In this document: positions 28,591 through 51,802 of the stretch, in pieces
Numbering within the stretch: position 1 is the stretch's first letter
Layout of the letters: each line of letters starts with the position of its first letter
Source of the DNA: an uncultured Acidobacteriota bacterium
GTDB taxonomy: Bacteria > Acidobacteriota > Vicinamibacteria > Vicinamibacterales > UBA2999
Direction: 5' to 3'
Length of the DNA stretch: 64,000 nucleotides
Assembly (NCBI GenBank): GCA_902826515.1
Contig: CADEFD010000005.1
Coordinates: 9,690 to 73,689, forward strand
Made by a program: the position numbers and the translations under genes
Notes under the pieces: model-generated
What the model saw: only the letters and a program-made list of their open reading frames with translations
Told to the model about the DNA's origin: nothing
Database searches by the model: none

Positions 28591-30096
28591 GTGGACGGGA
28601 CGTTCGACGTCGTCATCGTCGGCGCCGGCATCAACGGCGCCGCGGTGTGTCATGCGCTGACGTCCGCCGGTTACCGCGTGCTGCTGGTCGATCAGGGCGA
28701 TTTCGGCGGCGGCACGAGCCAGGCGTCCACGATGCTCATCTGGGGCGGCCTGCTCTATCTGAAGAACCTCGAGCTGGCCACGGTGCTGGCCCTGACCCGC
28801 GACCGCGATCGCCTGGTGGCCGAACACGCCGCGAGCGTGCAGGCGCGGCCCCTGCTCTACGTGCCGTCGGGCGGACCGCCGCGGGTCGTCGTCGAAAGTG
28901 CGCTCGCCGCCTATTGGGTGATGGGCGCCGGCAAACGCGCCCGGCCGCGTCGACTCGACGGCTATGACGAGCAGACCCACCTGGTCGCGGCAGGCGCCGC
29001 CTACGCGATTGAGGAGGCCGCACTCGTCACATCGGACGCCCGCTTCGTGCTCGAATGGGCGCTCGCGGCCGAACGCCTCGGCGCCGACATCCGCAACCAC
29101 GTCCGCGTGGACGCCATCGACAGCGCCGGTCCGAAGGCCGGATGGCGGCTGCGCCTCTGCGACGGACTGACCGGCGTCACCTCGGAGGTCCGCGCGCGGA
29201 TGGTCGTGAACGCGGCCGGCTGCTCGACCGACGCCGTGAACGACCGGGCCGGCATCACGTCGCCGTGGCGTCATCTCTTCAGCCGCGGCGTCTCGCTGGC
29301 CTTTCCGCGGCCGGCCTGGCACACGCGCCACCTCGTGCTCGACAGCGCCGACGGCGACGTGATGACACTGGCGCCGTGGGGCCCGGTGTCGCTGTGGGGT
29401 TCCACCGACACCGTGCACGCCGAACTCGCCGTCGCGCAGCGGCCGGCCGAGGTGGACGTCACACGTCTGCTCACGGAACTCAACCGGCACCTGCGCGCGC
29501 CGCTCGCGCGGCGTGACGTCATCTCGCTGCGCACCGGCGTGCGGCCGGTGGCGGTACGGCGTGACGCGACGGCGCCGAACGCGTCGCAGGCGCTGACCCG
29601 CCATCACCGCCTGCACCTCGACGGCTCGGAGCCCTGGGTCAGTGTGTACGGCGGCAAGCTGAGCGGCTGCCTCGGGCTCGCCGCCGAGGTGCGCGACCTG
29701 GTGGCCCAGCGCGTGTCTCCACGCCACCGTGCGCCGCTGCCGCGCGCCGCAGGGCACGACGTCGCCCCCCGCGTCACCACGACGTTCCCGACACTCGCCG
29801 AGCCGGTGGTGTCAGCTGCCTGGGCGGCCGCCCACGAGCACTGCGCCTCGCTCGACGACTACCTGCGCCGGCGCACCAACATCGCGCAGTGGGTGCCGCG
29901 CGGCGGCTTCGGCGCCGACGGCGAGCATGCCGACGCCCTCGAGCGCATCGCCCTCGAGATCCACGATGGCGACACCGGACTTGCCGAACGCGACCTGGCG
30001 CGGTACTGGCACCAGGTGTCGGTCACCGAGGACCTGCTGACACACACGCACCTGCCGGACGCGCCGCGCGCCTCCGCGCAGTGGAGACGGTTATGA
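28591..30096 (+). CDS. FAD-dependent glycerol-3-phosphate-dehydrogenase-like (GlpD-like) oxidoreductase
   Basis: GTG start. FDVVIVGAGINGAAVCHALTSAGYRVLLVDQGDFGGGTSQASTMLIWGGLLYL matches the GlpD N-terminal signature. Confidence 0.7.
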   Translation: MDGTFDVVIVGAGINGAAVCHALTSAGYRVLLVDQGDFGGGTSQASTMLIWGGLLYLKNLELATVLALTRDRDRLVAEHAASVQARPLLYVPSGGPPRVVVESALAAYWVMGAGKRARPRRLDGYDEQTHLVAAGAAYAIEEAALVTSDARFVLEWALAAERLGADIRNHVRVDAIDSAGPKAGWRLRLCDGLTGVTSEVRARMVVNAAGCSTDAVNDRAGITSPWRHLFSRGVSLAFPRPAWHTRHLVLDSADGDVMTLAPWGPVSLWGSTDTVHAELAVAQRPAEVDVTRLLTELNRHLRAPLARRDVISLRTGVRPVAVRRDATAPNASQALTRHHRLHLDGSEPWVSVYGGKLSGCLGLAAEVRDLVAQRVSPRHRAPLPRAAGHDVAPRVTTTFPTLAEPVVSAAWAAAHEHCASLDDYLRRRTNIAQWVPRGGFGADGEHADALERIALEIHDGDTGLAERDLARYWHQVSVTEDLLTHTHLPDAPRASAQWRRL

Positions 30097-31346
30097 CCCA
30101 CCCGCACCCTGCCCTGCTCGGCGGCCCGCCCGCCGTCACGCTCGACCAGCACGCCGCCAACCGCTGGCCGGTGCTCGAGGCCGACGACGAAGCCGCCGTG
30201 CTCGAGGTGATGCGCCACGGCGATCTCTCGAACCACGTGGTGACGCGCCACCTCGAAGACGACTTCCGCACCCGCCTCGGCTGCCGCCACGCGCTCGCGC
30301 ACGCCAACGGCACGCTCGGCCTGCTGGCCGCGTTCCACGCGCTGGACCTGGCGCCAGGCGACGAGGTCCTCGTGCCCTCGGCGACCTTCTGGGCGTCGGT
30401 GGTGCCGATGCTCTGGGTCGGCGCGGTGCCGGTCTTCTGCGAGATCGAGGGCGAACGCTTCGCGCTCGATCCGGCCGACGTGGAACGCCGCATCACGCCG
30501 CGCACGCGCGCCATGGTGCTCGTGCACCTCTGGGGCCTGCCGGCGAAGGTGGACGCGCTGCTCGAGATCGCCCGGCGGCATGGCCTCGCCGTCATCGAAG
30601 ACGCGTCGCACGCGCTCGGCGCCGTAAGCGGCGGCGTGCCGTGCGGCCGCTTCGGCGACATCAGCGTCTTCAGCCTGCAGACGTCGAAGCTCGCGGCCGC
30701 CGGCGAAGGCGGCGTGTTCCTCACCGACAACGACACCTACATGGAACGGGCGATCTGCCTGGGTGACATCGTGCGGATCTACGAGCTCACGACGCCCGCA
30801 CGGCGCTTCGCGGCCACGAGCTTCGGCATCAAGACCCGCATGGCGCCGCTCTCGGCGGCCGTCGGCCGCACGCAGCTCGCCAAGCTCGATCGCCACAACG
30901 CCCGGCGGGCGGCCAGCATCGAGGCTCTGGGCGCGCGCCTCGCGCCGCTCGGCTTCGAGACGTTCCCCTCGCCGCCCGGCACGACGCGCGTCTACTTCGA
31001 ACATCTCGTGCGCTACGACCCGGCGCACTTCGACGGCCTGCCGGTCGAATCCCTCATCGCGGCCCTGGCCGCCGAAGGCTGCGAGGTCACGGGGCCGCGG
31101 TATCCGCTGGTACATCAGCAGCCGTTCTTCACCGAAGGCCACTGGCGCGGGGTGGCGCGCCTCGCGCCGGGGGACCACGCCGACTGGCAGCCACCCGACC
31201 TGCCGATGAGCGCCGCCGTGCAGCGCAACATGCTGCGTCTGCCGACCTTCCCGTGGGCCGAGCCGGCCCTCATCGAGCAGTACGCGCAGGCCTTCGAGAA
31301 GGTGCACGCGCACGCGAGCCGCCTGCCGCGGCCGGCGCATGCGTGA
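30093..31346 (+). CDS. DegT/DnrJ/EryC1/StrS-family PLP aminotransferase
   Basis: ATGA overlap with the upstream stop. Family segment AVIEDASHALGA. PLP-Lys context SLQTSKLAAAGEGGV. Confidence 0.8.
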   Translation: MTHPHPALLGGPPAVTLDQHAANRWPVLEADDEAAVLEVMRHGDLSNHVVTRHLEDDFRTRLGCRHALAHANGTLGLLAAFHALDLAPGDEVLVPSATFWASVVPMLWVGAVPVFCEIEGERFALDPADVERRITPRTRAMVLVHLWGLPAKVDALLEIARRHGLAVIEDASHALGAVSGGVPCGRFGDISVFSLQTSKLAAAGEGGVFLTDNDTYMERAICLGDIVRIYELTTPARRFAATSFGIKTRMAPLSAAVGRTQLAKLDRHNARRAASIEALGARLAPLGFETFPSPPGTTRVYFEHLVRYDPAHFDGLPVESLIAALAAEGCEVTGPRYPLVHQQPFFTEGHWRGVARLAPGDHADWQPPDLPMSAAVQRNMLRLPTFPWAEPALIEQYAQAFEKVHAHASRLPRPAHA

Positions 31347-32445
31347 GCGACTGCGCCACGGCTGGCGCGCCGCGGCCTTCACGCTCGAGCTCGTGGCCGG
31401 GGACCGGGCGCGCTGGCTGACGGGGCGGGCGACGCCCGTCACCGTGACGCAGCACACGGTCGCGCACCACGGACGCGTCGTCTCTTACGAGTGTTACGCC
31501 GTGGCGAGGCGCGGCGGCTCGCGGTCTCCGGCGATCGTGGTCACACACGGCTTCACTCACGAAGGCGCCGCCGATCCGCGCCTGCAGGCGCTCTGCCGCC
31601 GCCTCGCGCGCGCCGGGTTCGTCGTGGTCGCGCCGGAGTTCGATGACATGCGGCAGTACCGCCTCGGCACCGGCGATCAGGCAGACCTCGAAGCCGTCGT
31701 CGCCGGCCTCGGCGCTCATCCGGACATCGACGTCCACCGGGTGGGCGTGATGGCGTTCAGCTTCGGCGCGGCGCCGACGCTCATCGGCCTCGCCCAGCCG
31801 CCGCTCAAGGAGACCGTGACGTTCGCCGTGATCTTCGGCGGGTACTTCGATCTGAAGCGCACGTTCAAGTACGTGCTGACCGGCGCCTACGACGGCTTCG
31901 GGTATCACGGCCGCCTGCCCGTGCCCACGGTGGGCGACGACCGCTGGAAGTTCCTGCGCGGCAATCTGGCGATGATTCCGCCGTCGCCCACGGCGCGTGT
32001 GCTCGAAGACACCGTCGTGCGACGGGTGGCCGACCCTGCCGCCGCGGTCGACGTGGGCGCGTGCAGCGAGGCGGAACGCGCCGCCTTCGCGCTCATCGAG
32101 AACCGCGATCCCGACCGCTTCGACGCCCTCTACGCCGCCGCCGCGCCGTTCGTGGACGCCTGGGTGCAGCGCCTGTCGCCCGTGCACACCGCGCACGGCA
32201 TCCGCGCGCAGCTCATCCTGATCCACAGCTTCACCGATCAGAAGACGCCCTTCATCGAGAGCATCGCGATGAGCCGTGGTGTGCCGGCGGCGCCGCCGCC
32301 GTCGCTCACGCTGCTGAATGCGTTCGCGCACGTGGACCTGCGGCTCAACTGGCGCAGCCTGCCCTCGCTCGTGCGCGACGGTCTGCCGGGGCTCGTCGCC
32401 GTCTGGCGCATCGTCGTGGCCGTGATGCGCGCCGCCCGCCTCTAG
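31339..32445 (+). CDS. Alpha/beta-hydrolase-fold protein
   Basis: 8-nt overlap with the DegT stop. Segment IVVTHGFTHEG. Nucleophile-elbow-like segment GVMAFSFGAAP. Segment LILIHSFTDQKTP. Confidence 0.6.
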   Translation: MRERLRHGWRAAAFTLELVAGDRARWLTGRATPVTVTQHTVAHHGRVVSYECYAVARRGGSRSPAIVVTHGFTHEGAADPRLQALCRRLARAGFVVVAPEFDDMRQYRLGTGDQADLEAVVAGLGAHPDIDVHRVGVMAFSFGAAPTLIGLAQPPLKETVTFAVIFGGYFDLKRTFKYVLTGAYDGFGYHGRLPVPTVGDDRWKFLRGNLAMIPPSPTARVLEDTVVRRVADPAAAVDVGACSEAERAAFALIENRDPDRFDALYAAAAPFVDAWVQRLSPVHTAHGIRAQLILIHSFTDQKTPFIESIAMSRGVPAAPPPSLTLLNAFAHVDLRLNWRSLPSLVRDGLPGLVAVWRIVVAVMRAARL

Positions 32446-32454
32446 CGCCCGGGG

Positions 32455-35400
32455 TCAGACCCTCCTCAGGGCGGCGCCGGACGTCCCGCCTGCGCCCACG
32501 AGGTCACCGAGGCGCGCGTCCGCCTCGCGGATGTTCGCCTCGATGTGCGCGGCAATCGCGGCGGCGAACGGCTCGTTCAGGAACGTGCTGTGGGAACCCG
32601 GCACGGTGTGGATGTCCACGCCGCCGCGGGCAATCGCCTTCCAGCCGTAGTCGTTCGCCTCGGGGAAGGGGCCGAGCAGCGGTCCGGTGCGCGGCAGGAT
32701 GAGCGTGGCCCGCCCGCCGAACGGCTTCGGCACGTAGGCGCGCAGCACGTCGAGGTGGAGGCGCAGCATCGCGACCTGCGAGTCCGGAAACCGCCACAGC
32801 CCGAGTTCGTCGCGGATGTCGCGCGGCCGCTCGGCACGGTCGTCCTCGTCGCGCCACGGCGTGAGGCGTCGCACCTTGCTGCGCACGCGGCTGGCGAGCC
32901 CGCCGACACCCGTGGGAAGGGCGTCGTCGCCAATCCAGCGCGGCAGGTTCTTCGCAAACGCCATCAGCAGTGGCGCGGGCGCCGGCGCCTCGCCGGCGGC
33001 AATCGCGTAGTCGAGCACCGTGAACGCGCCCACCTCGCGGCCCTGCGCTTCGAGCTGCCGCGCGATCTCGAGCACGATCACCGCGGCCGAACAGTAGCCG
33101 CCGAGGTGATAAGGTCCCTCGGGCCGGAGCGCGACCAGCTCGCGCGTGTAGGCCGCGGCGATCCGCTCGATGGTGCGATCGGCCGGCGCGAACGCCTGCG
33201 TCCAGTCGGCGGCGAACCCGTAGACCGGCCGCGCTGCCGCCAGGTGCTTCGTGACCTGCATGTAGCTGTAGATCTCCCCGCCCACGCCGTGCACCCAGAA
33301 GAACGGCGCTCCGGGACCGCCCGCGCTCATTCTGGCGAGGAGCGGTGTGGACGCCGCCGGCGGCGTGACGGCCGCCGCGGACCGCGACACCGTCCCGTCC
33401 GCAGTCGGCTGCGGGATCCGGGCGGCGGGTGCGGGCGGCGCCGGCAGCGCCGCCTCGATCGCGGCCGCCAGCTGGTCGAGCCGCGAGTGCTCGAAGAGCA
33501 CCACCGGCGCGAGCTTCACGCCGAAGGTCTCGCTCACCTGGTGTACGAGCTGAATAGCCAGCAGCGAGTGCCCGCCGAGATCGAAGAAGTCATCCGTGCG
33601 GCGCACCGCGGGCACGTCGAGCAGAGCCGCCCAGAGGCGCCCGAGGCGCGCTTCGACGGGCGACTCGGCGCGCTCCGGCATGCCGGCGCTCACGAGGCGC
33701 GCGCGGTCCGGATCCGGCAACGCCCGCTCGTCGAGCTTGCCGTTGGCGGTGAGCGGAAACTGGTCCACCGCCACGAACACGCCCGGCACCATGTACTCGG
33801 GCACCGACTGCCGCAGGTGTGCCTGCAGCTCCGCCGGATCAGGCGGCGCGCCAGCGGACTGCACGTACGCCACGAGCCTGAGGTCCGTGGCGCCGCCCGC
33901 GCCGGGCCGCGCCAGCACGCGGCAGCCGGCCACGCGCGCCTGCCGCGCCAGCACCGCTTCGATTTCGCCGAGTTCCACGCGGAAGCCGCGAACCTTGACC
34001 TGCAGGTCCAGCCGCCCGAGATACTCGAGCTCGCCGTTTGCGAGATAGCGCGCGCCGTCGCCCGACTTGTAGAGGGTGCCTGCGCCGAACGGATTCGGCA
34101 CGAAACGTGCGCGTGTCAGGTCGTCGCGGTTGAGATACCCCGCCGTCACGCCGGCGCCGCCGACATAGATCTCGCCGCGCGCTCCCACGGGCACCGGCTG
34201 CATCCGCTCGTCGAGCAGGTAGACCTGCCAGAGCGGCATCGGAGCGCCGATGACGCCGGCGCCCTGATGTGCCGTGTCGGCGCGCGTCACCGTGTGGAAG
34301 GTCACGAACACCGTCGTCTCGGTGATGCCGTACCCGTTCACGAGCGTGGGCGACGACTCGCCGTGTCGATCGAACCAGGCGGCGAGGCCAGGCATGTCGA
34401 GGGCTTCCCCACCGAAGACGACGTAGCGGAGGGCCAGCGTGCCGCGCTGCGCCTCGTCGACGGCCATCACCTGCCTGAACGCCGACGGCGTCTGGCTGAG
34501 CACCGTGACACGCTCGCGCACCAGCAGGTCGTAGAACGCTTCGGGCGAACGGCTCACCGCCTGCGGCACGACCACCACGCGGCCGCCGTACAGCAGCGCG
34601 CCCCACATCTCCCACACCGAGAAGTCGAAGGCGTAGGAGTGGAAGAGCGTCCACACGTCCGTGGCGCCGAAGGTGAAGAGCGGCGCCGCGCCGGCCATGA
34701 GGCTCACGACGTGACGATGCGTGACCATCGACCCCTTCGGTGTGCCCGAGGTCCCGGAGGTATAGATGACGTAGGCCAGGTCGTCCGGTCCCGCCACGGC
34801 CGGCGGATTCTCGTGCCCACCCGCCGCGTCGAGCACCTCGTCCACGAGCACGAGCGTGGCCACGCTGGCCGGCACGCGGCCGGCCACCGCGGCCTGCGTG
34901 AGCAGCACCGGCGCACCGGCATCGCGCAGCATGAACGCCAGCCGCTCGGGCGGATAGGCGAGGTCGATCGGCAGATACGCGCCGCCGGCCTTGAGCACGC
35001 CGAGGAGCGACGGCAGCAGCGCCGCGCCGCGTTCGAGGCAGACACCCACGAGCGAGCCGCGGCCGACGCCACGCGCCGTCAGCGCGGCCGCCACGCGATT
35101 GGCCGCCGCGTTGAGCTGGGCGTAGGTCCACGTGCGGCCGTCACAGGTGACGGCAGGCGCGTGCGGAGTCGCCGCCGCCTGCCCCTCGAAGATCTGCGCG
35201 AGCGGCACGGCCGGATCGAAGCGCAGCGGCTGCGGCGCCACGGGCGGTGCGGTGAGGCGCGCGAACTCCGCCGGCGAGACGAGCGGCAGCGTGCCCACCG
35301 GCTGCGCCGGATCGGCCAGGGCCGCCGCGAGGCACGTGCGGAACGCCTCGAGCCAGTGTTCGACGGTGGAGGCGTCGAGGATGTCGGCGTTGTAGTCGGC

Positions 35401-38400
35401 TTCGACCGCGAGGCCGGCCGGCGTCTCCATCACGTTCACGTGCAGGTCGCGGCGGGACGTCTCGCGCGGCACCGAGAGCACGGTGGACGGCAGCCCCGCG
35501 AATGTCGGGTCGGCGAACGAGGGCTCGAGGGTGAAGCTCACGGACACGAGCGGATCGCGCGAGAGCGACCGCGGCAGCCGCAGCGCGTGCAGCAGGCTCA
35601 GGTAGGTGTACTGCTGGTGGTCGTTGAGGTCGAGCGCGTGCGAGGTCACGGCGGCGACGTGGCGCGCAAACGGCGTGGCCGGATCCACCGCGCAGCGCAC
35701 GGCGATGAAGTTCACGCAGTGTGCGATCAGGCTCCGGGCGTCCACGAGCGCCTGCCCGGCCATCGGGATGCCGACCACGAAGTCGCCCTGGCCGCTCAGG
35801 CGCGAGACGAGCACCTGGAAGACGGCCAGCAGCGTCGAGAACGGCGTGGTGCGGTGCGCCGTGGCAAACCGCCGCACGCGATCCGCCAGATCGGTGTCGA
35901 ACGTCACGACGAGGCGGCGGCCGTTGAACGTCGCCACGGCCGGACGCGGCCGATCCACCGGCAGGTTCAGCGGCTCGGGCACCGTGGCGTACTGCGCGAG
36001 CCACCACGCTGCCGTTTCCCGCGCCTCGTCGTCGCCGGCCCGCTCCGCCAGTGCGCGCGCATACGCGGAGGCCGGCATCGCCGGCGGCAGCCCGTCGGGA
36101 CGCCCGGCGCGCCGCGCCTCGTAACACGCCTCGATTTCGCGCAGCAGCACCCCGAACGACCAGCCATCGCAGATGAGGTGATGGATGGCGATGACGAGCA
36201 CGTCACACCCGCCTTCGCGGATGAGGGCCACACGCCAGAGCGGACCGCGCGCGAAGTCGAACGGCTCGCGGTTGACCCGGCGCAGCACGTCCTCGCGCGC
36301 GGCCGTCGGGTCCGCCGCCTGCGTGTGATCGAATACCTCGACCACGAGCGGCAGCGACGCCGCCACGCGGAATCCCGGCGGCGTGGACGACACCGACATG
36401 CGCAGCGACTCGTGTCGCGCCGAGAGGTCGTTCACCGCGCCTTGAAGGGCGGCGAGATCGAGCGTGCCGCCGATCTCCTTGGCGACCACTTCGTTGAACG
36501 CGGCCGAGGCCACCGGCGACAGGTGCGAGCCGAGCCACACCTCCATCTGCGGTTCGGTGAACGGCACGAGGCCGTCGTCGGTCGCACCGCCGGCGGGGCC
36601 GTCCGGCGCCGGGGCGCCGAAGAAGCCGGCCCGTCGCATCTCGACGAGGCTCGTGTCGAGCGCCTCGACCACCTGCCGCAGTTCGGCCTCGGTGTGCGCG
36701 GTCGAGACGAAGAACGGCCGGTCCCACACGTGGATGCCGTGCAGGCGCAGGTAGTGGAAGAGCAGCCGCGCGAGCGGGTTCGCGTCAGTGAAGCTGATGC
36801 TGCAGATCGAGGCGCAGTGCTCGAGATGCATCGGCGCGTCGTGGCGGCGGAACGTCGCCTCGACATCCGCGGCGAACTGCCCGGCCTTTGCATTCAACTG
36901 GTCGTACAGCGCCGGCCCGGCGTCGCGCACCTGGCGCAGGGACGCCACCGCCGCCGCCAGGCAGAGTGCATTGCGCGTGAAGGTGCCGCCGAAGAAGGTG
37001 ACGCCGCCTTCGGGGAACGAGTCGTCGCCGAACTGCCACGGGCCGCCGTCGAAGGCGTCGAGGTACGGCGCGGCGCCGGCAATCGCCGCAATCGGCAGGC
37101 CGCCGCTCATGATCTTGCCGTAGCAGGCGACGTCGCAGTCCACGCCGAGGTAGCCCTGCGCGCCACGCGGATGCAGGCGGAAGCCGGTGATCATCTCGTC
37201 GTAGATGAGCGGGATATCGAGGTCGCGCGTCAGGCGACGCAGTTCGCGGAGCTGCTCGATCGGCTGGAAGTCGGGATGCCGCCCCTGCACCGGCTCCACG
37301 ATCACGCCGGCGACGTCGCCGGCCCGCTCGCGCAGCACGTCGAGGCTTCCCGGATCGTTCCAGTGCAGCACGATCACCTTGTCCACGAAGTGGTCGGGGA
37401 TGCCGGGTGCCGCCGCAGCGGCGCGGTAGCGGTCGGCGCGGCTCGCCGGCTTCACGAGCACTTCTTCCGACATGCCGTGGTACTCGTCGTCGAAGACAGC
37501 GATCCACTCGCGTCCCGTGGCGGTGCGCACGGCGCGGATGGCGCCCGAGAGCGCTTCGGAGCCGGTGTTGGCGAAGGTCACGCGCTCCATGCCCGTGATC
37601 TCGCGGATGAGGTCCGCGGCCTCCTTCGCGAGCGGTGAGAGCGTGCCGAGTTCGATGCCGCGATCGAGCTGCGCGCGCACCGCATCGGTCACCCACGGCA
37701 CGCCGTGGCCGAAGAGGTTCACGCCGAAGCCGGACGTGAGGTCGAGGTACTCGTTGCCATCGATGTCGCGGACCTTCGTGCCCTGCGACCAGTCGGTCGC
37801 AATCTGGTAGACGATCTCCTTCCAGACCTTACGGAAGCCGCCGACCGCGCGCGGATCGGCCAGCACGCCGCGCTGCGCGGCGGTGAGCGCCTTCGACGCC
37901 GCCGTCTTCGCGGTGTAACGGGCGATGAGATCGTCGAGGCCGCGCTGCTGCACCGGCGTGAGGCCGTGTGCCGACTGATCGATGCCGCGGAAGGGCCCGA
38001 ACTGCGGCGGCGCGGCCGGTGAGGCGCCGGTCGAGGCGGCGGGCGCTGTCACGGCCGGGGTCGGCGCGGTGGCCGCCACGGGCACGGCAGGCGCGGAGGC
38101 CGGCGCGAGAGCCGGCGACGCCGGCACGGGTGCGCCGCCGAGCAGCCGGAGTTGCTCCGCCATGAGCCGCAGTTGTACCTGCACCACACGTTCGAGGGCG
38201 CTGGCCGTCGCGGGCAGCATCGCCGCTGGCGCGGGCGCGAACGCGGAGGCGGTGGGGGCCACGAGCACCGCGGACGGTGGCGCGGTCACGGTGGGCGCCA
38301 CGGCGGCTGGCGACCCGACCGGCGCCGGCGGCAGCTTCCCGTCGATGAAGCGGGCCAGGGCGTCGATGGTCGGGGCGTCCTCGAAGAGCTGTCGGAACGT

Positions 38401-41334
38401 GACGCGCACCTTGAACTCGCCCTTGATACGCAGCGTCGCCTGCGTGAGGAAGAGCGAGTCGAAGCCCATCTCGAGAAACGCGACGTCGCGGCGGATCGTG
38501 CCAGCCGGCATGCCGCTGAGCGTCTGGAAGAGCGCCGTCAGGCGGCGGGCAATCTCATCGACGCGCGGCGGGGGCACCGGCGAAGACACGGACGCGGGAG
38601 GCGGAGTGGGCATCACGGGGACGTCCTGACGGGCGGGCACGGACACGGGCGCGACGGCCGCTGCTGCAACAGCGGGCCGCTCGGGGAAGTAGCGCTGGCG
38701 TTCGAACGGATACGACGGGAGCGAGGTTCTACGGGCGCCGGAGGTGTCGGGCAGCGCCGCCCAGTCGAGCGGCACGCCACGGCTCCACACGCGGCCGGCG
38801 GCCTGCAGCAGCACGGCGAGGTCGTCGGCCGTGTCGGCCGGCACGCGCATCGACGGCACGACGCCGCGCGCGTCGGTCACGCGCGCATGCTGGCGCGCGA
38901 AGGTGCTGAGCGCCTGGCCCGGCCCCGCCTCGACGAGCGTGCGATCGCCCTCGGCGAGCAGCGCGTCGAGGCCGGCCTGGAACCGCACCGTCTCGCGCAG
39001 GTGGCGCACCCAGTAGTCAGGCGACTGTGCCTCGGCGGCGGTCAGCCACGTGCCCGTGAGATTCGAGAGCACGGGACGCGCCGGCGCCGCGAGCGGAATA
39101 GTCTCGAGGAAGGCCCGGAACGGGTCGAGGATCGCATCCACCATCGGCGAATGCGCCGCCACGGCGATGCGCAGGCGCCGGCACTCGATGTCGTCGGCGT
39201 CGAGGGCACGGGCGAAGTCCGCGAGCGCGCCGGGAGCGCCGGCCACAACCGTGGACGCCTCGGCGTTGACCGCGGCAATCGCGAGCGCACGCGGCAGCCG
39301 GGCCCGCACGTCGGCTTCCGGCAGCGGCACGGCGAGCATGCCGCCCTCCGGCAGCGTCTCGAAGAGAGTGCCGCGCAGTTGCACGAGGCGCAGCGCATCC
39401 GGGACCGTCATCACGCCGGCCAGACACGCCGCCGTGTATTCACCCATGCTGTGACCGATGAGGGCGGCCGGCTCGACGCCCCACGCCATCCACTGACGCG
39501 CCAGCGCGTATTCCACCGCGAAGAGGGCCGGTAGTCCCCACGACGGCGCTTCGAGGCGTGCCGCCGCGGCCGCGTCATTCGCGGCCGGCCAGACCGCCGA
39601 CGCCAGGTCGCGATCGGTCACGAGTCCCAGGCACTGGACCAGCGTCTCGCGGAACACCGGAGCGTGGGCAGTGAGGCCGCGGGCCATGCCCACGTACTGC
39701 GCGCCGCCGCCGGGGAACATGAATGCGGCCGGCGCCGTGCTGGCTTCGAGCGCCGGCGCCACGCGCGGATCGGCGCTGCGCAGCGCGCGCACCGCCTCGC
39801 CGGTATTCGCCGCGACGACGGCGCGCCGCCAGGCGAACGGGTGACGTCCGGCGCGCAGGGTGCGTGCGACATCACGAAGCGGCCGCTCGGGCGACGCCTC
39901 GAGCGCATCGGCGAGTCGCGTCGTGGCGGCATCGAGGGCCGTCGGCGTCTTCGCGGACACGACAAGGAGGGTGCTCGCGGCGTCGGCGCCTTCGCGCGGC
40001 CGGTCTGGCGCTTCCTCGAGCACGACATGGGCGTTCGTGCCGCCGAGGCCGAAGGCACTCACCCCGGCCCGTCGCGGCGTCGGGCCCGCGGGCCAGTCGC
40101 GGCGTTCCGCCGCCACGACGAAGGGCGTGGCCGCGAAGTTGATGGCGGCGTTCGGCGCGCTGAAATGCAGCGTCGGCGGCACCTCGCGATGTTCGAGCGC
40201 GAGCACGGTCTTGATGAGCCCGGCCACGCCCGCGGCCGTGTCGGTGTGGCCGATGTTCCCCTTCACCGAGCCGATCGCGCAGAACCCGGTGCGGTCGGTG
40301 CCGGCGCGGAAGGCCTGCGTGAGCCCGGCGATCTCGATCGGATCGCCGAGCGGCGTGCCGGTGCCGTGCGCTTCGACATAACCAATCGAGTCGGCCGGCA
40401 CGTTGGCGACGGCAAGCGCGGTGGCAATCGCGTCCGCCTGCCCTTCCGGACTCGGCGCCGGAAAACTCATCTTCGCGGCGCCGTCGTTGTTGAGGGCGCT
40501 GCCGCGGATGACAGCGCGGATCGTATCGCCGTCGGCGATCGCATCGGCGAGGCGCTTCAGCACCACGAGGCCCACGCCGTCGCCGTTCACCGTGCCCTGC
40601 GCCTGCGCGTCGAAGGGCCGGCAGTGGCCATCCGGCGAGAAGATGCCGCCCTCGTGATAGTGATGCCCGGCGCGCAGCGGCACGCCCACGGCCACGCCGC
40701 CGGCGAGCGCCATGTCGCTCTGGTAGGCGAGCAGGCTCTGACAGGCCTGGCACACGGCGACGAGCGAGGTGGAACACGCCGTCTGCACGTTCATGCTGGG
40801 CCCGCGCAGGTTCAGCTTGTAGCTGACGCGCGTGGTCAGGTAGTCCTTGTCGGTGCCGAGCCTCAGCGGGTACGCCCCGTAACGCGTGCCCTCGGGATCC
40901 GCCGCGCGCAGGAGCGGCAGGTAGGTGGACTGGCTCATGCCGCCGAAGACACCGACGAGCCCCGGCGCGGCGAGCGGATCGTAGCCGGCGTCTTCGAGCG
41001 CGGCCCACGCACATTCGAGGAACAACCGGTGCTGCGGGTCCATGATCTCGACGTCGCCCGGCAGGTAGCCGAAGAACGCCGCGTCGAAGGTGTCGGCGTC
41101 GTCGATGACGCCCTTGGCGCGCACGTAGTCGGGATCCTCGACGAGCCCGGGCGGCACGCCGGCCGCCACGAGTTCCTCCGGCGTGAACCACTGGATCGAC
41201 TCACGCCCCTCGCGGAGGTTGCGCCAGAACGTGGTGAGGTCCGCCGCGCCGGGAAACCGTCCGGCCATGCCGACGACGGCAATCGCGTCCGCGAGTCCTT
41301 CGGGCAGGTCGGAGGCGTCCAATCCGGCGCTCAT
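32455..41334 (-). CDS. Hybrid type-I PKS / NRPS megasynthase: KS-AT-ACP-aminotransferase-C-A-T-TE (2959 aa)
   Basis: ATG 41334 overlaps the stop of the upstream NRPS (ATGA). All core motifs were read from the translation; see the domain features below. Confidence 0.95.
   Translation of the reverse strand: [2959 protein letters not shown]
32458..33345 (-). other. Thioesterase (TE) domain with Cys at the nucleophile position
   Basis: [10 protein letters not shown]; elbow LGGYCSAAV (Cys TGT = reverse complement of 33091..33093); [15 protein letters not shown] (His codon 32590..32592). Confidence 0.8.
33430..33642 (-). other. Thiolation (T/PCP) domain
   Basis: [16 protein letters not shown], with the Ser codon at 33565..33567. 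Confidence 0.85.
33655..35202 (-). other. Adenylation (A) domain, specificity unassigned
   Basis: [58 protein letters not shown]; NGKLD. Confidence 0.85.
35245..36567 (-). other. Condensation (C) domain
   Basis: [16 protein letters not shown] (HHxxxDG at 36163..36183). Confidence 0.85.
36610..37977 (-). other. In-line class-III (GSA-aminomutase-like) aminotransferase (AmT) domain
   Basis: [48 protein letters not shown]. PLP-Lys context [11 protein letters not shown] (Lys codon 37114..37116). Confidence 0.8.
38335..38562 (-). other. Acyl carrier protein (ACP) domain
   Basis: [12 protein letters not shown], with the phosphopantetheinyl Ser codon at 38455..38457. Confidence 0.8.
38785..39729 (-). 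other. Acyltransferase (AT) domain (approximate bounds)
   Basis: [16 protein letters not shown] (Ser codon 39448..39450). The specificity/catalytic-His motif reads VAAHS (39151..39162 = VAAH). Confidence 0.8.
40015..41289 (-). other. Ketosynthase (KS) domain (approximate bounds)
   Basis: [13 protein letters not shown]; active site TACSTS (Cys codon 40774..40776); [27 protein letters not shown]. Confidence 0.85.
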
Positions 41335-44300
41335 CGGGCCGTGCCCCGCGCGGCGCGCATGCGGGCCGCGTGGTCGCGCTGGCGGGCGGCGCGATCGGCT
41401 GGCGCGGCCGCAGCCACGGCGAGCGGCGCATCGGTCGCGCGCGCCAGCTCCGCGGCCAGGGCGCGCACGGTGGGCAGCCGGAACAACATGACGATCGGCA
41501 CGTCGAGGCCGAGCGCGTCGCAGAGCCGCCGGTGCACCTGCATGAGCGACAGCGAGTGGCCGCCGGCCTCGAAGAAACTCACCGTGACGCCGACCGCGTC
41601 CACGCCGAGCACCTCGCACCAGATCGCCGCGATACGCCGCTCGAGGTCGGTGGCCGGCGCGACGCGCCGGGCCGCCTCGCCGCCGCCGGCCGCCGGCCTG
41701 GGCAGACGCGCCCGATCGAGTTTGCCGTTCGGGCTGAGCGGCAGCGCGGCGAGCGCCACGATGTGCTGCGGCACCATGTAGTCGGGCAGCGCCGCGGCGA
41801 GCGCCCGGCGCAGGCTGTCGACGGCCGCCGGGCCGGTCACGTACGCCACGAGCTGCGGATCGCCGGGCACGTCCTGGCGCGCCACGACCACGGCGTCGGT
41901 CACACCCGGCTGCGCGGCGAGCGCCGCTTCGATCTCGCCGAGTTCGATGCGGAACCCGCGCACCTTCACCTGGTGGTCGGTGCGGCCGAGGTACTCGAGG
42001 GCGCCGTCGGGCAGGCGGCGGCAGATGTCGCCGGTGCGGTACAGACGCGCGTCCGGCACAGCCGCGAACGGATCGGACAGGAACCGCGCGGCGGTGAGAT
42101 CCGGACGGCCGTGATAGCCGGTCCCCACCTGCACGCCGCCGAGATACAGCTCACCGGAGACGCCAGCCGGCACCGGTTCGAGCGCGTCGTCGAGCACGTA
42201 ACAACGCGTGTTGGGCGCGGCGTAGCCAATCGGCACGCGCGTCGTGGGCGCTTCGCGGGGACACGTCCAGTGCGTCACGTCCACCGCGGCTTCGGTGGGC
42301 CCGTAGAGATTGCGGAGCGTCGCCGGGAGCACGCGATGGCAGGCATCCACCAGGTCGGGCGCCAGGGCTTCCCCGCTGCAGATGATCTCGCGCACCGAGG
42401 TGCACGTCGCCACATGGCGCGCCTGGAGGAACACACGCAGCATCGACGGCACGAAGTGCAGCACGGTCACCTGGTGCGTCGTGACGGCGGCCACGAGGGC
42501 ATCGGGATCGCGATGGCTGTCTGGCGCGGCCACGACGAGCCGGGCGCCTTCCCCGAGCGGCCAGAAGAACTCCCACACCGAGACATCGAAACTGAACGGC
42601 GTCTTCTGCAGCACCGCGTCGGCCGGCGTGAGCTGATAGAAGGCCTGCATCCAGCGCAGGCGGTTCACGATGCCGCGATGGGTGTTGATGGCGCCCTTGG
42701 GCCGCCCGGTCGAGCCCGACGTGTAGATCATGTAGGCCGGGTCGTCGGGCCCGATCGATGCGACCGGCGGCGTGGCCGGCCGCTCGTCGAGGGCCTCGCC
42801 GGCCTCGTCGAGCGCCAGCACGATGGCGTCGGTGTGCAGGCGCGCGGCCACCTCGAGGTGCGTCACGACCACCGTGGCGCCGGCATCCGCCAGCATGAAG
42901 GCCACACGGTCGGCCGGATAGTCGGGGTCGATCGGCACGTAGGCGGCGCCCGCCTTGAGCACCGCCAGGAGCGTCACGACCATGTCGAGCGATCGCTCGA
43001 GACAGACGGCGACGCGCTCGCGGGGCTGCAGGCCGAGGCCGCGCAGGTGGTGCGCGAGCTGATTGGCGCGGCGGTCGAGCGCCGCGTACGTGAGCGTGCC
43101 CTCGCCGGCGACGACCGCCACCGCATCGGGCGTGCGCGCGGCCGCGGCTTCGAACGTGTGCTGCAGGAGCCCGGCGGGGCCGTAGTCCACGTCGGTGTCG
43201 TTGCCGTGCGCGAGGAGGGCCCGGCGCTCGTCGGCGGTATGCAGCGGCAGGCGGCCGATCGGGAGGGCGGCCGCCAGCGGCATCGCGAGCAGCAGCGTGC
43301 GCAGCCCGGCCAGCATCCGCGCGGCCACGCCCGGCTCGAGGCGGTCGTGATAGAAGCCGAGGTGCAGCGACAACCGCTCGCCACCGTAGGCCGTGAGCGT
43401 GACACCGATATTGGTCTGGCCGTGATACGCGACACGGCGCGACGCCCAGGCGCCGCCGCGCGATCGCATCACCTCGTCGATCGCCCGGTGTTCGTAGACG
43501 ACGAGCGTGTCGAAGAGCGGCTGGCCCGCGGGCACGGCACTCGCCGCCTGCACGCGCGTCAGCGGCGTGTGCGCCCAGGGCCGCTGAGCGCGCCAGGCGC
43601 GGCGCACATCGGCGAGAAACACTTCGAGCGGCTGCGCGCGGTCGATCGCCACCCGCAGCGGCAAGGTGTTGATGAGCAGGCCGAGCATCCGCTCGACGCC
43701 GGGCACCGGCAGATGACGGCCGGCGCGGGTCACGCCGAACATGACGTCGTGCTCGTGACTGTAGTGGTGCAGCAGGAGCGCCCAGGCGGCCTGCACGAGC
43801 GTGTGCATGGTGACGCCCTGCGCGGCGGCAAACGACTCGAGCGCCGCTGTTTCCGCGGCTTCGAGCCGGCGCGCGATCTCGTCGTGCACGCGCGTCGCCG
43901 GTGGCGCCGCCGGTGCCGGCGCGGCGAGGGCGAGCCGCGTGGGCGAGGTCACACCGGCAAGCGTGGCGTGCCAGAAGCGATCGGCCGCGGACCAGTCGGT
44001 CGCGGCCAGCGCCCGCACGACGTCGCCGAAGGCGCCGCGCGGTTCGACGGCGCGCGGAGCCGCCGCATGGTCGTAGCGCGCGAAGACGTCATCGAGCACG
44101 AGCGGGAACGAACGGCCGTCGAGCAGGGCGTGATGGAACGTCCAGATGAGGATGTCGTCGCCGCCGGCCTCCTGCAGGAGCGTCCAGCGCATCACCGGGG
44201 CCTGGTCGAGGGGCAGCGGACGCCGGCGATCGGCGGCGAGCCACGCGGCCAGGCGCGGCGCCACGTCGGCAGGGGCGACGTCGCGCCACGACTCGACCGT

Positions 44301-44609
44301 CCAGTCGAGCGTGACGTCCGGCGCCGCCTGCTGCACCGGGCGCCCGTCGGCCGTCCACGTGAAGGCCGTGCGGAGCATCGGCTCGGCGAACACGACGGCG
44401 CGCCACGCCGCGTGCAGGTCGGCGGCGCGCAGGCGCTCGCGCGTGCGGAGGACGATCTGTTCGATGTCCACGCCCGACCCGGGGGCGCGGACGGCGTGCA
44501 GCAGCATGCCCGCCTGAAGGGGGACGAGCGGCAGCGGCGCGTCGGATGCAGCGGCGGTTGGCGGCGGCGCGGGCAGCAGCGCGTCCCGCCCGGTGATGGG
44601 TGGTGTCAT
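41331..44609 (-). CDS. NRPS module C-A-T (1092 aa), A domain predicted Ser
   Basis: [10 protein letters not shown] (HHxxxDG 44115..44135); [62 protein letters not shown] (Ser codon 41553..41555). Confidence 0.95.
   Translation of the reverse strand: [1092 protein letters not shown]
41430..41657 (-). other. Thiolation domain T1
   Basis: [16 protein letters not shown]. Confidence 0.85.
41685..43172 (-). other. Adenylation domain A1 (hand-read code DVWHISLVDK, Ser-like)
   Basis: Specificity positions were read by ungapped alignment to GrsA-PheA numbering between FDVSVWE and [11 protein letters not shown]. Confidence 0.75.
43245..44537 (-). other. N-terminal condensation domain of the first module (approximate bounds)
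   Basis: [13 protein letters not shown]...; [13 protein letters not shown]. Confidence 0.8.
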
Positions 44610-44907: not shown

Positions 44908-45741
44908 TCAGCGCCGCGGCACGAGTCGCACTTCGCCGGCCGGCGGGTCGATGAAGATGGATGTGAAGAGGGTGGCCGGCAGCAGCCCGTCGCCCGTCCG
45001 TGGCTGCGAGGCCGACACCAGCCGCACCGTGGGCACGGCGCCGAGCGGCAGCCCGGCCAGCGAGAGCTGCGCGCGTCCCGCGCGTGCGGCCACGCCGCCA
45101 CCGGCGGTGCCGAGTGTCACGGCCTCGCCGCGCACCTCAGGGTCGAAGACCACGACGGCTTCGGCACCGGTATCGAGCACGAGCTGGCGTGGCCGGCCAT
45201 CGACCCGCGCCTCGATCACGAACCGGCCGCCGGTCTCGCGGACCGGTACGCGCACGCCGCGCACGCCGCGTGCGTCATCCGCGGCCACGAAGGTGAGCAG
45301 CCCCGCGGCGAGGTCGATCAGCACGCGGTCGCCGCCGAGCGCGTCCATGCCGAGGATGCCGTCGATCTCGGGGTCGCGGCCCAGTGCCGCGAGGTCGGCC
45401 ACCACCACGGGGAACGCCCGCCGCACCCGCTCGCCGAGGTGGAGCGCCGGCAGAATCGCCTCGCCCACCTCGACCATACCGGCGGGTGTGAGCAGCCGCC
45501 GGCCCGGCATCACGACGAGTCCGGCGCGCCGCGCCGCCGCATCGGCCAGCACCGTGTGGGAGCTGCCGGTATCGATCAGGAAGTGCCAGGGGCGCCCTGC
45601 GGGGTCCGCGTGCACGGGCGCCGTCCAGAGCCCGCCGCCGGTGCGGGTGAGCGACACGCCGCGTCCCGCGGCGCCGACGCGCGGGGCGGCGGTGACGGAC
45701 GCGAGTGCGACGAGCAGACAGAGCGCGGTGCCGTGGGCCAT
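44908..45741 (-). CDS. Secreted retropepsin-like (clan AA) aspartyl protease with two DTG lobes
   Basis: Signal peptide MAHGTALCLLVALASVTAAP. Two catalytic-type motifs in one 277-aa chain: FLIDTGSSHTVL and LVLDTGAEAVVV. ILGMDAL flap-like segment. Confidence 0.7.
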   Translation of the reverse strand: MAHGTALCLLVALASVTAAPRVGAAGRGVSLTRTGGGLWTAPVHADPAGRPWHFLIDTGSSHTVLADAAARRAGLVVMPGRRLLTPAGMVEVGEAILPALHLGERVRRAFPVVVADLAALGRDPEIDGILGMDALGGDRVLIDLAAGLLTFVAADDARGVRGVRVPVRETGGRFVIEARVDGRPRQLVLDTGAEAVVVFDPEVRGEAVTLGTAGGGVAARAGRAQLSLAGLPLGAVPTVRLVSASQPRTGDGLLPATLFTSIFIDPPAGEVRLVPRR

Positions 45742-45850
45742 GGTGCCCCACGGTGCGCCGCGCCGCCCCGCCGCGTCGTGACGCGGGGCGACGGCAGCCG
45801 CGCGGAAATGATGTGGAAGTGGTGATGAGGCCGAAACCGGCCGGAATTCG

Positions 45851-47983
45851 CTACCGCGTGCGGGTCGCCGGCGGCAGCTCGACCAGATACAAGGTGCCGC
45901 GGACGTCCGTCCGGTCGTAGGCGATGAGGTCGCCGCGCGGCGACCACGACGGATACCGCGTGGTCACTTCCGGGTCGGTTTCCGTGATGACCGGCGTGCG
46001 CGCCCCGGTCGCCGGGTCGAGCGTCTCGATGTTCCACACCCCGCGGTCACCGAGCGTGGAGAGCGCCACGCGCCGGCCATCCGGCGAGAAGGCTCCCGGC
46101 CAGAACTGGCCGATGGCTGGCGACACACGGCGCGCCGTGCCGGTCGCGACCTCGCCGAGATACATCGGCATGTGCGCGCCTTCCTTCTTCTCGAGCGCGA
46201 GCTGCCGGCCGTCGGGCGACCACACCGGAAACGCGTAGCCGTCGAAGAGCGGCCAGACGCCGAACGTGCCGCGCGACAGCGACCCGCGGCCCACCGTGTT
46301 GAGCGGCTCCCCGAGCGTGGCCACCACCGTGTCGCCGTCCGGGGCGACCCGGGGGAACGTGGCGGCTTCGGGCAGCGGCAGCCGCTCGGTGACGACGCCG
46401 GTCTCGAGGTCCGCCTCGACCAGATACGGCGAGAGTCCGATGCGGCGCATGGCGAAGAGCCGCCGGTTGCTCTGCCATGTGGGATACAACACGCGGCGCC
46501 CGCCGGAGAGGACGGACCGGTCGTTGGCGCCGTCGACGTCCATCACGCGGATCTCGGCGCCCGTGTCGTAGGCGATGCGACGGCCGTCGGGCGAGATGGC
46601 CGGGTGCCCGCCGGGACGGAGCTGTCGAGGGGCGCCGGCGGGTGCGCCGGCGCTCGTCACCGGCACGGTCCAGATGTGCTGGCGAGGCCGGATGAGCACG
46701 AGGGCCGCCAGCCGTCCGCCCGGCGCGATCGAGACCGCGCGCGCGGCCTCCGGCAGCGACGGAATGACGACGTCGGCGGCGAGCGGTGCTCCCGTGGCCT
46801 GGTCGCCGACGCCGACGCGGACCAGGCGGTTGCCGGCCAGGGGCCACTCGACCACCCACGCCGACACGCCCGTGGGGCCCGGCGTCAACTGCCGCACGTG
46901 ATAGGTCCAGCTGTCGGCGCGCTTGGTCAGCAGGCCGTCGCGCACACGCACGGACCAGAAGTCGATGGGCCCGTTGCGCGAGGACGCGAAGTAGATCTGC
47001 GTGCCGTCGGGCGACCACAGCGGCTGCCAGTGGCCGCCGGGCGGATCGCCGGCCCGCGTGAGCGGGCGCGCCTCACCTCCGCTGGCCGGCACGATCATGA
47101 TGTGTGACCCGGGCTGCGCCCACTCGCTGACCCACTCGTCGGTCTGGAACGCGATCCACTCGCCATCGGGCGACCAGGCCGGACGGGAGCCCGTGGCGGC
47201 CACCTGGCGCGCCGCCCCGCCGTCGCGGCCGATCACCCAGATGCCGCGGCGCAGCGACGAGTGATAGGCGATCGAGGCGGAATCCGGCGACCACACGGGA
47301 TGCACGTTGCGCATGCCGTCGGCGGTGACGGGGCGCGAGGTGCCCGTGCGCAGGTCGCGCACGGCGATCTCGAAATCGCCGGTGCCGTCGGAGACCACCG
47401 CCAGCCACCGCCCGTCGGGCGAAAACGTCGCGGCGAGCACCGAGCCGCCGGCGTCGATGGCGGTGAGCCCGCCGGCCTCGGGCCGGGCGTCCGCCCGGCG
47501 TCCCGCCACCATCCAGAGCGCGGCGCCGACACATGCCGCGAGCGCCACGAGCGTGGCGATGACGGCGCGGCGTCGTGGCGCCGGCCGCAGCTCAGCCGGC
47601 GCGGAGGCCGGAGCCGCGGCCACCACGACCGGGGGCGGCACCGGCACGGCGTCGGACGCGTCGGACGCGGGTTCGTGGCGCACGTCCGCGATGAAGCGAT
47701 ACCCGCGCGTGGGCACCGTCTCGATGAGGCGCGGCGCGGTGGCATCGTCGCCGAGCTCGCGCCGCAACTGCGCGATGACGCGCGTCACGGCGTTCGGCGT
47801 GACGGCCACGTCGGCCCACACGCCGTCGAGGATTTCGTCCTTGGTGACGAGCCGGCCGGGGCGCTCGACGAGGAACCGCAGCACCTCGATCGCTTTCGGC
47901 TCGAGGGCGAGCCGGCGGCCGTTCCTCGTGACGTCGAACCGCTCGACGTCCAGCGCAACATCGGCGAAACGGTATCTGGACAC
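45851..47983 (-). CDS. Membrane-anchored one-component regulator: OmpR/CadC-type winged-helix domain + TM + TolB-like (PD40) beta-propeller
   Basis: GTG start. YRFADVALDVERFDVTRNGRRLALEPKAIEVLRFLVERPGRLVTKDEILDGVW...TVPTRGYRF. TM segment AVIATLVALAACVGAALWMVA. Repeated motifs SPDGRxxA..., WSPDG.... Confidence 0.8.
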   Translation of the reverse strand: MSRYRFADVALDVERFDVTRNGRRLALEPKAIEVLRFLVERPGRLVTKDEILDGVWADVAVTPNAVTRVIAQLRRELGDDATAPRLIETVPTRGYRFIADVRHEPASDASDAVPVPPPVVVAAAPASAPAELRPAPRRRAVIATLVALAACVGAALWMVAGRRADARPEAGGLTAIDAGGSVLAATFSPDGRWLAVVSDGTGDFEIAVRDLRTGTSRPVTADGMRNVHPVWSPDSASIAYHSSLRRGIWVIGRDGGAARQVAATGSRPAWSPDGEWIAFQTDEWVSEWAQPGSHIMIVPASGGEARPLTRAGDPPGGHWQPLWSPDGTQIYFASSRNGPIDFWSVRVRDGLLTKRADSWTYHVRQLTPGPTGVSAWVVEWPLAGNRLVRVGVGDQATGAPLAADVVIPSLPEAARAVSIAPGGRLAALVLIRPRQHIWTVPVTSAGAPAGAPRQLRPGGHPAISPDGRRIAYDTGAEIRVMDVDGANDRSVLSGGRRVLYPTWQSNRRLFAMRRIGLSPYLVEADLETGVVTERLPLPEAATFPRVAPDGDTVVATLGEPLNTVGRGSLSRGTFGVWPLFDGYAFPVWSPDGRQLALEKKEGAHMPMYLGEVATGTARRVSPAIGQFWPGAFSPDGRRVALSTLGDRGVWNIETLDPATGARTPVITETDPEVTTRYPSWSPRGDLIAYDRTDVRGTLYLVELPPATRTR

Positions 47984-51413: not shown

Positions 51414-51431
51414 GGCGCGCGGGTGCGCGCC
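51414..51431 (-). terminator. GC-rich hairpin directly after the vapC stop (weak terminator candidate)
   Basis: GGCGCGC-gggt-GCGCGCC gives a 7-bp stem. On the minus strand it is followed only by TTCC, so there is no real U-tract. Confidence 0.3.
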
Positions 51432-51802
51432 TACCACAGCACGGGCGCGCCGTACTCGCGCAGCGCGGCGTCGCGGCTCACGAGCGTGGCGCCTTCGACG
51501 AGCGCCTGCGCCACCAGCATGCGATCGAACGGATCGGCGTGCAGGCCGGGCAGTGTCTGCAGACGCGCGGCGTGCGCGAGCGTCACCGGCAGCTCGGTGA
51601 AGTCGTCGGCCGCCACGGTGATGGCGAAGGGCTCGTCGGCCCGCAGGCGGCCGAGCGCCGTCTTGATCGCCACTTCCCAGCCGGACGCTGCACTGACCCA
51701 CACGATGTCGGCCGTGGCAATCGCGCGCCGCGCAGGACCGGACAGCCGCCGATCGTCCGTCTGCCACCAGAGCACCGCGTGGGTGTCGAGCAGCAGCTTC
51801 AC
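51431..51802 (-). CDS. vapC: PIN-domain type II toxin VapC
   Basis: MKLLLDTHAVLWW...SAASGWEVAIK...DPFDRMLVAQA, with the conserved acidic PIN residues. 4-nt overlap with the antitoxin gene. Confidence 0.9.
   Translation of the reverse strand: MKLLLDTHAVLWWQTDDRRLSGPARRAIATADIVWVSAASGWEVAIKTALGRLRADEPFAITVAADDFTELPVTLAHAARLQTLPGLHADPFDRMLVAQALVEGATLVSRDAALREYGAPVLW

Follow-up and report, generated by a model that had tools for sequence, protein, structure and literature searches.

A cysteine-type thioesterase with canonical triad geometry ends a predicted three-module hybrid assembly line in an uncultured Vicinamibacterales bacterium

The thioesterase (TE) domain at 32458..33345 (-) of the window, a stretch of 64,000 nucleotides with 72% GC from an uncultured member of the Vicinamibacterales (Acidobacteriota; assembly GCA_902826515.1, contig CADEFD010000005.1, positions 9,690 to 73,689), ends a hybrid polyketide synthase and nonribosomal peptide synthetase (PKS-NRPS) protein and appears to use Cys in place of Ser as its nucleophile. 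The reading that best explains our observations, to which we assign a probability of roughly 0.8, is that of a functional cis-acting type I NRPS TE of the Cys-His-Asp kind, with canonical geometry and not of the ObiF/SulM type, terminating the hybrid line. Cys-type TEs are already known as a kind, and this one belongs to a large and almost wholly uncharacterised clade of them.

The TE domain of 296 residues directly follows the last peptidyl carrier protein (PCP) domain (residues 2658-2721) and scores 56.4 bits with PF00975 (cut-off 26.4), the match spanning positions 2-224 of the 226 in the profile (core at approximately 32536..33306). The reverse-strand translation of 32458..33345 contains PEGPYHLGGYCSAAVIVLEIARQLEAQG, in which the nucleophile elbow reads GGYCSAA. 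Cys85, encoded by TGT at 33091..33093 (-), is the central residue of the motif G-Y-C-S-A-A, and a first-pass annotation made from the letters alone had placed it at the position normally held by the catalytic Ser. Alignments, model and conservation all bear this out. A single-sequence phmmer search of all Protein Data Bank (PDB) chains set Cys85 gaplessly opposite the catalytic Ser of Skyxy-TE (GWSLG; GWALG in the mutant 7dxo), the Ser of the human fatty acid synthase thioesterase (FAS-TE; GYSYG) and the Cys of AB3403 (GGWCFGG). All triad residues aligned when a 34-member family profile was compared with AB3403 (GGyC/GGWC, vlD/mID and pGsHs/PGDHS).

An AlphaFold2 model of the TE, built on a 34-sequence family alignment (A2) and reaching a mean predicted local distance difference test score (pLDDT) of 91.3 and a predicted template modelling score (pTM) of 0.90, places Cys85 between strand 79-84 and helix 87-100, the arrangement of a nucleophile elbow. 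In the same model strand 105-111 ends just before Asp112, and the loop that follows strand 243-248 carries His252. Asp112, the predicted triad acid (FTVLDYA; codon 33010..33012 (-)), occupies the canonical place directly after strand beta6, aligns with the Asp of AB3403 and of Skyxy-TE and stands 27 residues from Cys85 in the sequence, while the predicted base His252 (VPGSHSTF, with GSHST; codon 32590..32592 (-)) is invariant in alignments A1 and A2. Cys and Asp112 are each conserved to at least 90% in A2. As read from the alignments and the model, the triad is Cys85-His252-Asp112 in ordinary geometry with Asp after beta6, and the earlier impression that acid and base are retained and that the domain looks functional is upheld.

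The Cys could nonetheless be an artefact, with TGT miscalled for a Ser codon, or it could be misassigned, with the adjacent Ser86 acting as nucleophile or the whole domain decayed. TGT is one substitution from TCT or AGT, and of the two Cys codons it is the rarer in this genome, where GC at third codon positions is about 89%; both facts speak for a miscall. However, Cys occupies the same column in the relatives P0001, P0011-P0029 and others, and the orthologous loci L001 and L002 encode it by TGT and TGC, respectively. Since the orthologues use different codons for the same residue, Cys85 is better regarded as a selected residue than as a base-call error, and both Cys codons are also in use among 77 related TE domains of other genomes. 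Ser86 was considered as the true nucleophile and ruled out, since the +1 position in relatives is S, A, G, T, N, F, L, Q or R, against conservation of Cys to at least 90%; the strand-Cys-helix geometry of the model is likewise correct. Decay is contradicted by the intact Asp and His and by the intactness of all other domains. An artefact or misassignment of any of these kinds is hardly credible.

Kinship with known TEs was judged by E-values of the family profile against PDB chains, which serve here as a proxy for a tree. Among solved structures the profile matched Skyxy-TE at 1e-44, AB3403 at 2.4e-37, FAS-TE at about 5e-29, Pks13 and NocB at about 1e-26 and EntF at about 1e-22. ObiF1 followed at 3.8e-3 (rank 60), SulM was not within the top 60 PDB matches of the profile, and neither ObiF nor SulM was found by single-sequence phmmer against PDB chains at E<=10. 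A Foldseek search with the TE model returned Skyxy-TE, FAS-TE, AB3403 and Pks13-TE as top matches, in agreement with the profile ranking.

The closest solved structure in both sequence and fold is Skyxy-TE of the skyllamycin NRPS (PDB 7CRN/7DXO; Foldseek E 2e-17), a bifunctional epimerising and cyclising TE. It has the same triad layout as the window TE, but its nucleophile is Ser (GWSLG) and its substrate a long depsipeptide. The best Cys-bearing solved relative is AB3403 (ABBFA_003403) of Acinetobacter baumannii (PDB 4ZXH/4ZXI; Foldseek E 7e-15; identity about 24-30%), a Cys-type TE known from structure alone with its triad Asp at the usual site (PMC11298585). Like the window TE it combines a Cys nucleophile, a module of condensation (C), adenylation (A), PCP and TE domains (C-A-PCP-TE), an Asp in the post-beta6 position and a His in PGDHS. 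The two differ in the elbow, which reads CFGG in AB3403 and CSAA here, and AB3403 is without both the lid motif DIRDxLGMWRFP and the context of a PKS module and an aminotransferase (AMT) domain. Because AB3403 is uncharacterised as to both its product and its release chemistry, the likeness gives no functional transfer.

The first-pass annotation had compared the TE with those of ObiF and SulM, the characterised Cys-type examples that it listed. Both are indeed Cys-type TEs, of which ObiF (obafluorin) forms a beta-lactone and SulM (sulfazecin) a beta-lactam (PMC6668435, PMC11298585), but the list was incomplete, since the polymyxin, macolacin and BulbE TEs and AB3403 belong to it as well. The polymyxin and macolacin TEs form macrolactams via the amine of 2,4-diaminobutyrate (Dab), and BulbE-TE N-acylates an indole (PMC13288461, PMC11792885). 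In ObiF and SulM the triad Asp has moved one strand later, to 'position II', with Gly at the usual site, and both enzymes require that the last residue bear a beta-OH or beta-sulfamate (PMC6668435, PMC11298585). SulM has in addition a Gln-Cys-Asn elbow and an Arg-rich pocket (PMC11298585), and in ObiF an EntF-like triad is reported to hinder loading (PMC6668435, PMC11298585). The window TE shares with these enzymes the Cys nucleophile and short chains, and the Cys would favour a TE of their kind, in which the C-terminal residue closes to a strained beta-lactone or beta-lactam on release.

The identity of that residue bears directly on such a release. A-domain codes were read by alignment to GrsA, in which all ten reference positions gave the expected DAWTIAAICK. 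The A domain of the last module (33736..35190 (-)) has the code DFWSVGGVFK, which is Val-like or unassigned: it starts like the Thr-type DFWSVGMVHK, without its Met and His (His331), and ends like Val codes. A literature search gave no match to this exact code and returned only the Thr-type DFWSVGMVHK. The corresponding codes of the orthologues are DFWSVGGVF in P0013, the Val-like DAFWLGGFA and DAFALGGTF in P0012 and P0011, and the true Thr code DFWNIGMVH in P0015 and P0028. The Thr-like opening DFWSVG and the true Thr codes of P0015 and P0028 thus count in favour of strained-ring release, but because the window code is without the Thr-type Met and His, ends in a Val-like -GGVFK and has close orthologues (P0011, P0012) that are Val-like, a beta-OH or beta-NH on the last residue appears unlikely. 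The triad points in the same direction, with Asp at the canonical post-beta6 site where ObiF has Gly and where an EntF-like arrangement hinders ObiF loading (PMC6668435, PMC11298585), and so do the Tyr-Cys-Ser elbow, as opposed to the Gln-Cys-Asn of SulM, and the far poorer profile match to ObiF1 than to AB3403. The suggested kinship with the beta-lactone and beta-lactam TEs is thereby not supported, and release of either ring from the C-terminal residue is very improbable. Judged by alignment and model, the window TE is not a beta-lactone or beta-lactam synthase of the ObiF/SulM type, and its triad geometry is AB3403-like.

Cys-type TEs account for about 2% of known TEs (PMC13288461), and in this global sense their supposed rarity stands, but it does not extend to the relatives of the window TE. 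HMMER, run exhaustively over 1.84 billion cluster representatives, gave 28,986 relatives at E<=1e-3, and the triad columns were read on the best 150 of these, mapped onto the query. In this set of the best 150 the nucleophile column held Cys 86 times, Ser 87 times and Gly 3 times, the acid column Asp 154 times (154/179), Glu 13 times and Asn 9 times, and the base column His in 172/174. A neighbour-joining tree of 146 near-full-length TE domains, calculated with the nucleophile column masked, placed the window TE in a clade of 44 representatives, 41 of which carry Cys; over the whole tree at least 10 switches between Cys and Ser are required. By these counts the Cys is uncommon globally but the rule within the lineage of the window TE.

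The nearest relatives of the TE come from metagenome-assembled genomes (MAGs) of the Vicinamibacterales and Acidobacteriota. Each GTDB species was represented by one genome in a pattern scan that was seeded with a Cys-containing peptide and so gives breadth and not frequency. TEs of the PYHLGGYC type turned up in more than 60 of the species, mostly of the Verrucomicrobiota and also of the Acidobacteriota, Chloroflexota and Planctomycetota. The window TE is part of a large and almost wholly uncharacterised Cys-TE clade, mainly of Acidobacteriota, Verrucomicrobiota and other soil phyla. More distant members of this clade end NRPS proteins of an ordinary kind, with C-A-PCP-TE or two modules and in some cases TubC-type docking domains, which suggests that the Cys-type TE is a general termination domain of the lineage and is not tied to AMT chemistry.

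The lid region of the TE (residues 126-203; 32737..32970 (-)) is modelled as a long helix, 126-161, and a second helix, 188-203, and residues N133, W137, D141, R159 and D176 are near-invariant in family alignment A2. Within the clade the motifs F-x-R-N-L-P-x-W-x-x-D-D-A and D-I-R-D-x-L-G-M-W-R-F-P, and also W235, are near-invariant. The clade's lid motifs are not common to AB3403 or Skyxy-TE, and they could define a TE subfamily and its substrate pocket.

Several large relatives (P0029 at 1079-1346; P0032, P0038, P0039, P0043 and P0047) have two TE-like domains. The internal one (ALINCA / AGHEK) keeps Cys and His and has Asn in place of the triad Asp. This agrees with a remark in the literature that the acid of some Cys-type TEs is replaced by Asn or Ser. 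Such an internal Cys-type TE could be a mid-line transacylase or cyclase.

The gene ended by the window TE lies at 32455..41334 (-) and encodes 2,959 amino acids. As called mechanically the open reading frame (ORF) is 32455..41619 (-), and the likely start is the ATG at 41334, which shares bases with the stop codon of the gene before it (ATGA). The Pfam domain order of the protein is ketosynthase (KS), acyltransferase (AT), acyl carrier protein (ACP), class-III AMT, C, A, PCP and TE. The KS domain (40162..41289 (-)) has its TACS, HGTGT and NIGH motifs intact, as the AT domain (38881..39723 (-)) has its GHSMG, and the ACP of the PKS module, a second PP-binding stretch with GFDSL, lies at 38335..38562 (-), these limits being approximate. 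The AMT domain (36730..37803 (-)) matches PF00202 at 1.2e-39 and carries the pyridoxal phosphate lysine motif YGK; it is followed by the C domain of the last module (35254..36567 (-); HHLICDG), the A domain with the Val-like code, and the PCP that delivers the chain to the TE (33457..33648 (-); PF00550, GGHSL). The AT domain reads VAAHS where malonyl- and methylmalonyl-specific AT domains carry HAFH and YASH, respectively, which makes its extender-unit preference uncertain.

The upstream gene (41331..44609 (-)) encodes an NRPS of the order C-A-PCP with an N-terminal C domain of the elongation type. Its A-domain code, DVWHISLVDK, is Ser-like: DVWHLSLVDK and DVWHMSLVDK, both of them codes for Ser, differ from it at a single position (PMC12283262). 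The catalytic motifs checked across both genes, namely those of the KS, AT and ACP, the AMT lysine, the HHxxxDG of the C domains and the GGHSL of the PCPs, are all intact. The sequences thus describe a three-module hybrid line, C-A(Ser-like)-PCP, KS-AT-ACP-AMT and C-A(Val-like)-PCP-TE, which as a whole looks functional.

The domain order of the window is that of the KS-(AT)-ACP-AMT-C-A-PCP modules of the MycA type (mycosubtilin/iturin) and the McyE type (microcystin). In these modules the AMT converts a beta-keto thioester into a beta-amino acyl chain, which is handed to an NRPS C domain, and in iturins the beta-amine is the cyclisation nucleophile of the TE. By analogy, the AMT domain of the window is predicted to turn a beta-keto group into a beta-amine. 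Unlike MycA and McyE, the PKS module of the window appears to extend a Ser-like aminoacyl unit instead of a fatty acyl or polyketide chain, and the line ends after one more residue in a Cys-type TE.

Two Acidobacteriota MAGs and P0012/P0013 have the PKS-NRPS gene at 53-70% identity and in an unchanged domain order, and the same architecture is kept in L001/L002 and P0012/P0013/P0015. In L001 (1786-10885), which comes from a MAG, apparent frameshifts split the orthologous gene into several overlapping ORFs. With tblastn it can nevertheless be aligned over its full length at 59-73% identity, and indel errors of the assembly are a likelier cause of the breaks than pseudogenisation.

By analogy with characterised Cys-type TEs, the PCP-bound chain would be moved by transthioesterification from pantetheine to Cys85, giving an S-acyl (thioester) enzyme, with His252 as the base and Asp112 as the acid at the positions suggested by alignment and model. 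Domain order and the logic of MycA and McyE predict an (acyl-)Ser-derived 4-amino-5-hydroxy-3-aminopentanoyl-Xaa chain. The Ser-derived unit would first be lengthened by malonate, then transaminated at C3 and finally joined to a residue that is probably hydrophobic. The reactive thioester intermediate would favour an internal nucleophile over water. The best candidate for this nucleophile is the AMT-installed beta-amine, whose attack would yield a 7-membered lactam of the 1,4-diazepane-2,5-dione type or a head-to-tail cyclodimer, the latter by capture between two chains as other short iterative lines do it.

Release by an internal nucleophile is favoured because replacement of Cys by Ser in the MacB, polymyxin, BulbE and ObiF TEs costs cyclisation or activity, and because the Cys seems to be under purifying selection. 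The C89S variant of MacB-TE gives hydrolysis only, the activity of the polymyxin TE falls 60-fold and the C731S variant of BulbE-TE loses weak nucleophiles (PMC13288461, PMC11792885); in ObiF the exchange likewise shifts the reaction to hydrolysis or costs activity (PMC6668435). The polymyxin TE (PMB-TE) and MacB-TE, compared here by description only, resemble the window TE in having a Cys-His-Asp triad with canonical Asp and a Cys-Asp spacing of 27 residues (MacB Cys89/Asp116; PMC13288461). They use an amine of the chain as nucleophile and need the Cys in order to cyclise rather than hydrolyse (PMC13288461, PMC11792885). Their substrates are however decapeptide lipopeptides, closed to 23-membered rings via the Dab side chain, whereas the chain of the window line would have three units and an AMT-derived amine. 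Some form of cyclising release via this amine is by such analogy plausible, in keeping with what the first-pass annotation had proposed, and for a lactam or cyclodimer as the actual product we consider the chances to be a little short of even.

The TE may instead be simply hydrolytic, releasing a linear (acyl-)diamino-hydroxy acid dipeptide, with the Cys as a neutral trait of the lineage. The frequency of Cys/Ser interchange in the tree of 146 related TE domains suggests that the swap is often tolerated, and hydrolytic TEs (FAS-TE, NocB) are among the nearest homologues of solved structure. Yet the residue is held throughout nearly all of the immediate clade (41/44) and by means of both codons, which points to purifying selection, and the shift to hydrolysis or the loss of activity on exchange of Cys for Ser in characterised enzymes (PMC13288461, PMC11792885, PMC6668435) implies that the thioester is used to beat water. 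Hydrolysis is therefore rather less likely than cyclising release, to which it is the chief alternative.

Some observations weigh against the preferred reading of a functional Cys-type TE ending the hybrid line, and against the chemistry proposed for it. The terminal A-domain codes differ among orthologues, being Val-like or Thr, and the substrate is thus not uniform. No donor module, fatty acyl-AMP ligase (FAAL) or free ACP was found upstream of the first C domain in the 64-kb window. The orthologous Acidobacteriota loci L068 (8567-11698 (+)) and L067, in which the first module was reached by walking upstream from the orthologue's own sequence, start with a loading module of A, methyltransferase (MT) and PCP domains and have no C domain. 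We also know of no precedent for the release of a 7-membered lactam by a TE.

The N-terminal C domain of the upstream NRPS (43212-44534 (-)), with HHALLDG intact, has elongation C domains as its best PDB matches (McyB at 1e-63 and PvdL C1). A starter-type C domain with lipo-initiation was considered and is not supported, as RzmA was matched at 2.6e-11 and CDA-C1 at 1e-8 against 1e-63 for McyB. A search of genome contigs for related loci with this N-terminal C domain found none. With an elongation-type C domain without donor here and A-MT-PCP in the orthologues, the chain may or may not be acylated at its N-terminus, and the nucleophiles that it offers are uncertain. In L068 a JmjC/cupin hydroxylase gene lies divergently upstream.

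One may speculate further that in uncultured Vicinamibacterales the Cys-TE clade and the compact aminoacyl-PKS-AMT-aminoacyl line produce small, strained N-heterocycles that form a new family, as 7-membered 1,4-diazepane-2,5-diones or 14-membered cyclodimers. The thioester acyl-enzyme would here let an unfavourable medium-ring closure outpace hydrolysis, and, if true, this would be a release chemistry so far undescribed for TE domains. We regard this extension as doubtful.

The demand for Cys-type TEs as biocatalysts comes from their thioester acyl-enzyme, with which nucleophiles that are weak or strained can hold their own against water, and to our knowledge only about six such TEs have been studied so far. 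The clade described here adds a large, coherent and uncharacterised set from Acidobacteriota, Verrucomicrobiota and related soil phyla, with a canonical triad and lid motifs of its own, and the window offers a short, tractable three-module pathway for probing the role of the Cys. A Cys nucleophile should, moreover, not be taken as a sign of beta-lactone or beta-lactam chemistry; what discriminates is the position of the triad Asp and the nature of the last residue. These results should be of use to enzymology and genome mining, and will not surprise the specialist.

A permease/FAD-oxidase/amidohydrolase block downstream of the TE is syntenic in relatives and directly follows the TE in L001 and L002. 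In the window three genes stand between the TE stop and this block, and they are found only here: an FAD oxidase (28591-30096 (+)), a DegT/EryC1 aminotransferase (approximately 30100-31346 (+)) and a DLH-like hydrolase (31339-32445 (+)). Either the three (28591-32445) were inserted in the window or the relatives have lost them, and a tailoring function is conceivable. The stretch 44908-47983 (-), which lies directly upstream of the NRPS genes on the same strand, encodes a retropepsin-like aspartyl protease (PF13650) and a Trans_reg_C/PD40 beta-propeller regulator, for which cotranscription with the cluster or a part in its regulation is possible. The short ORF at 51431-51802 (-) has a PIN domain (PF01850); it is probably a toxin-antitoxin component and is unrelated to the TE.

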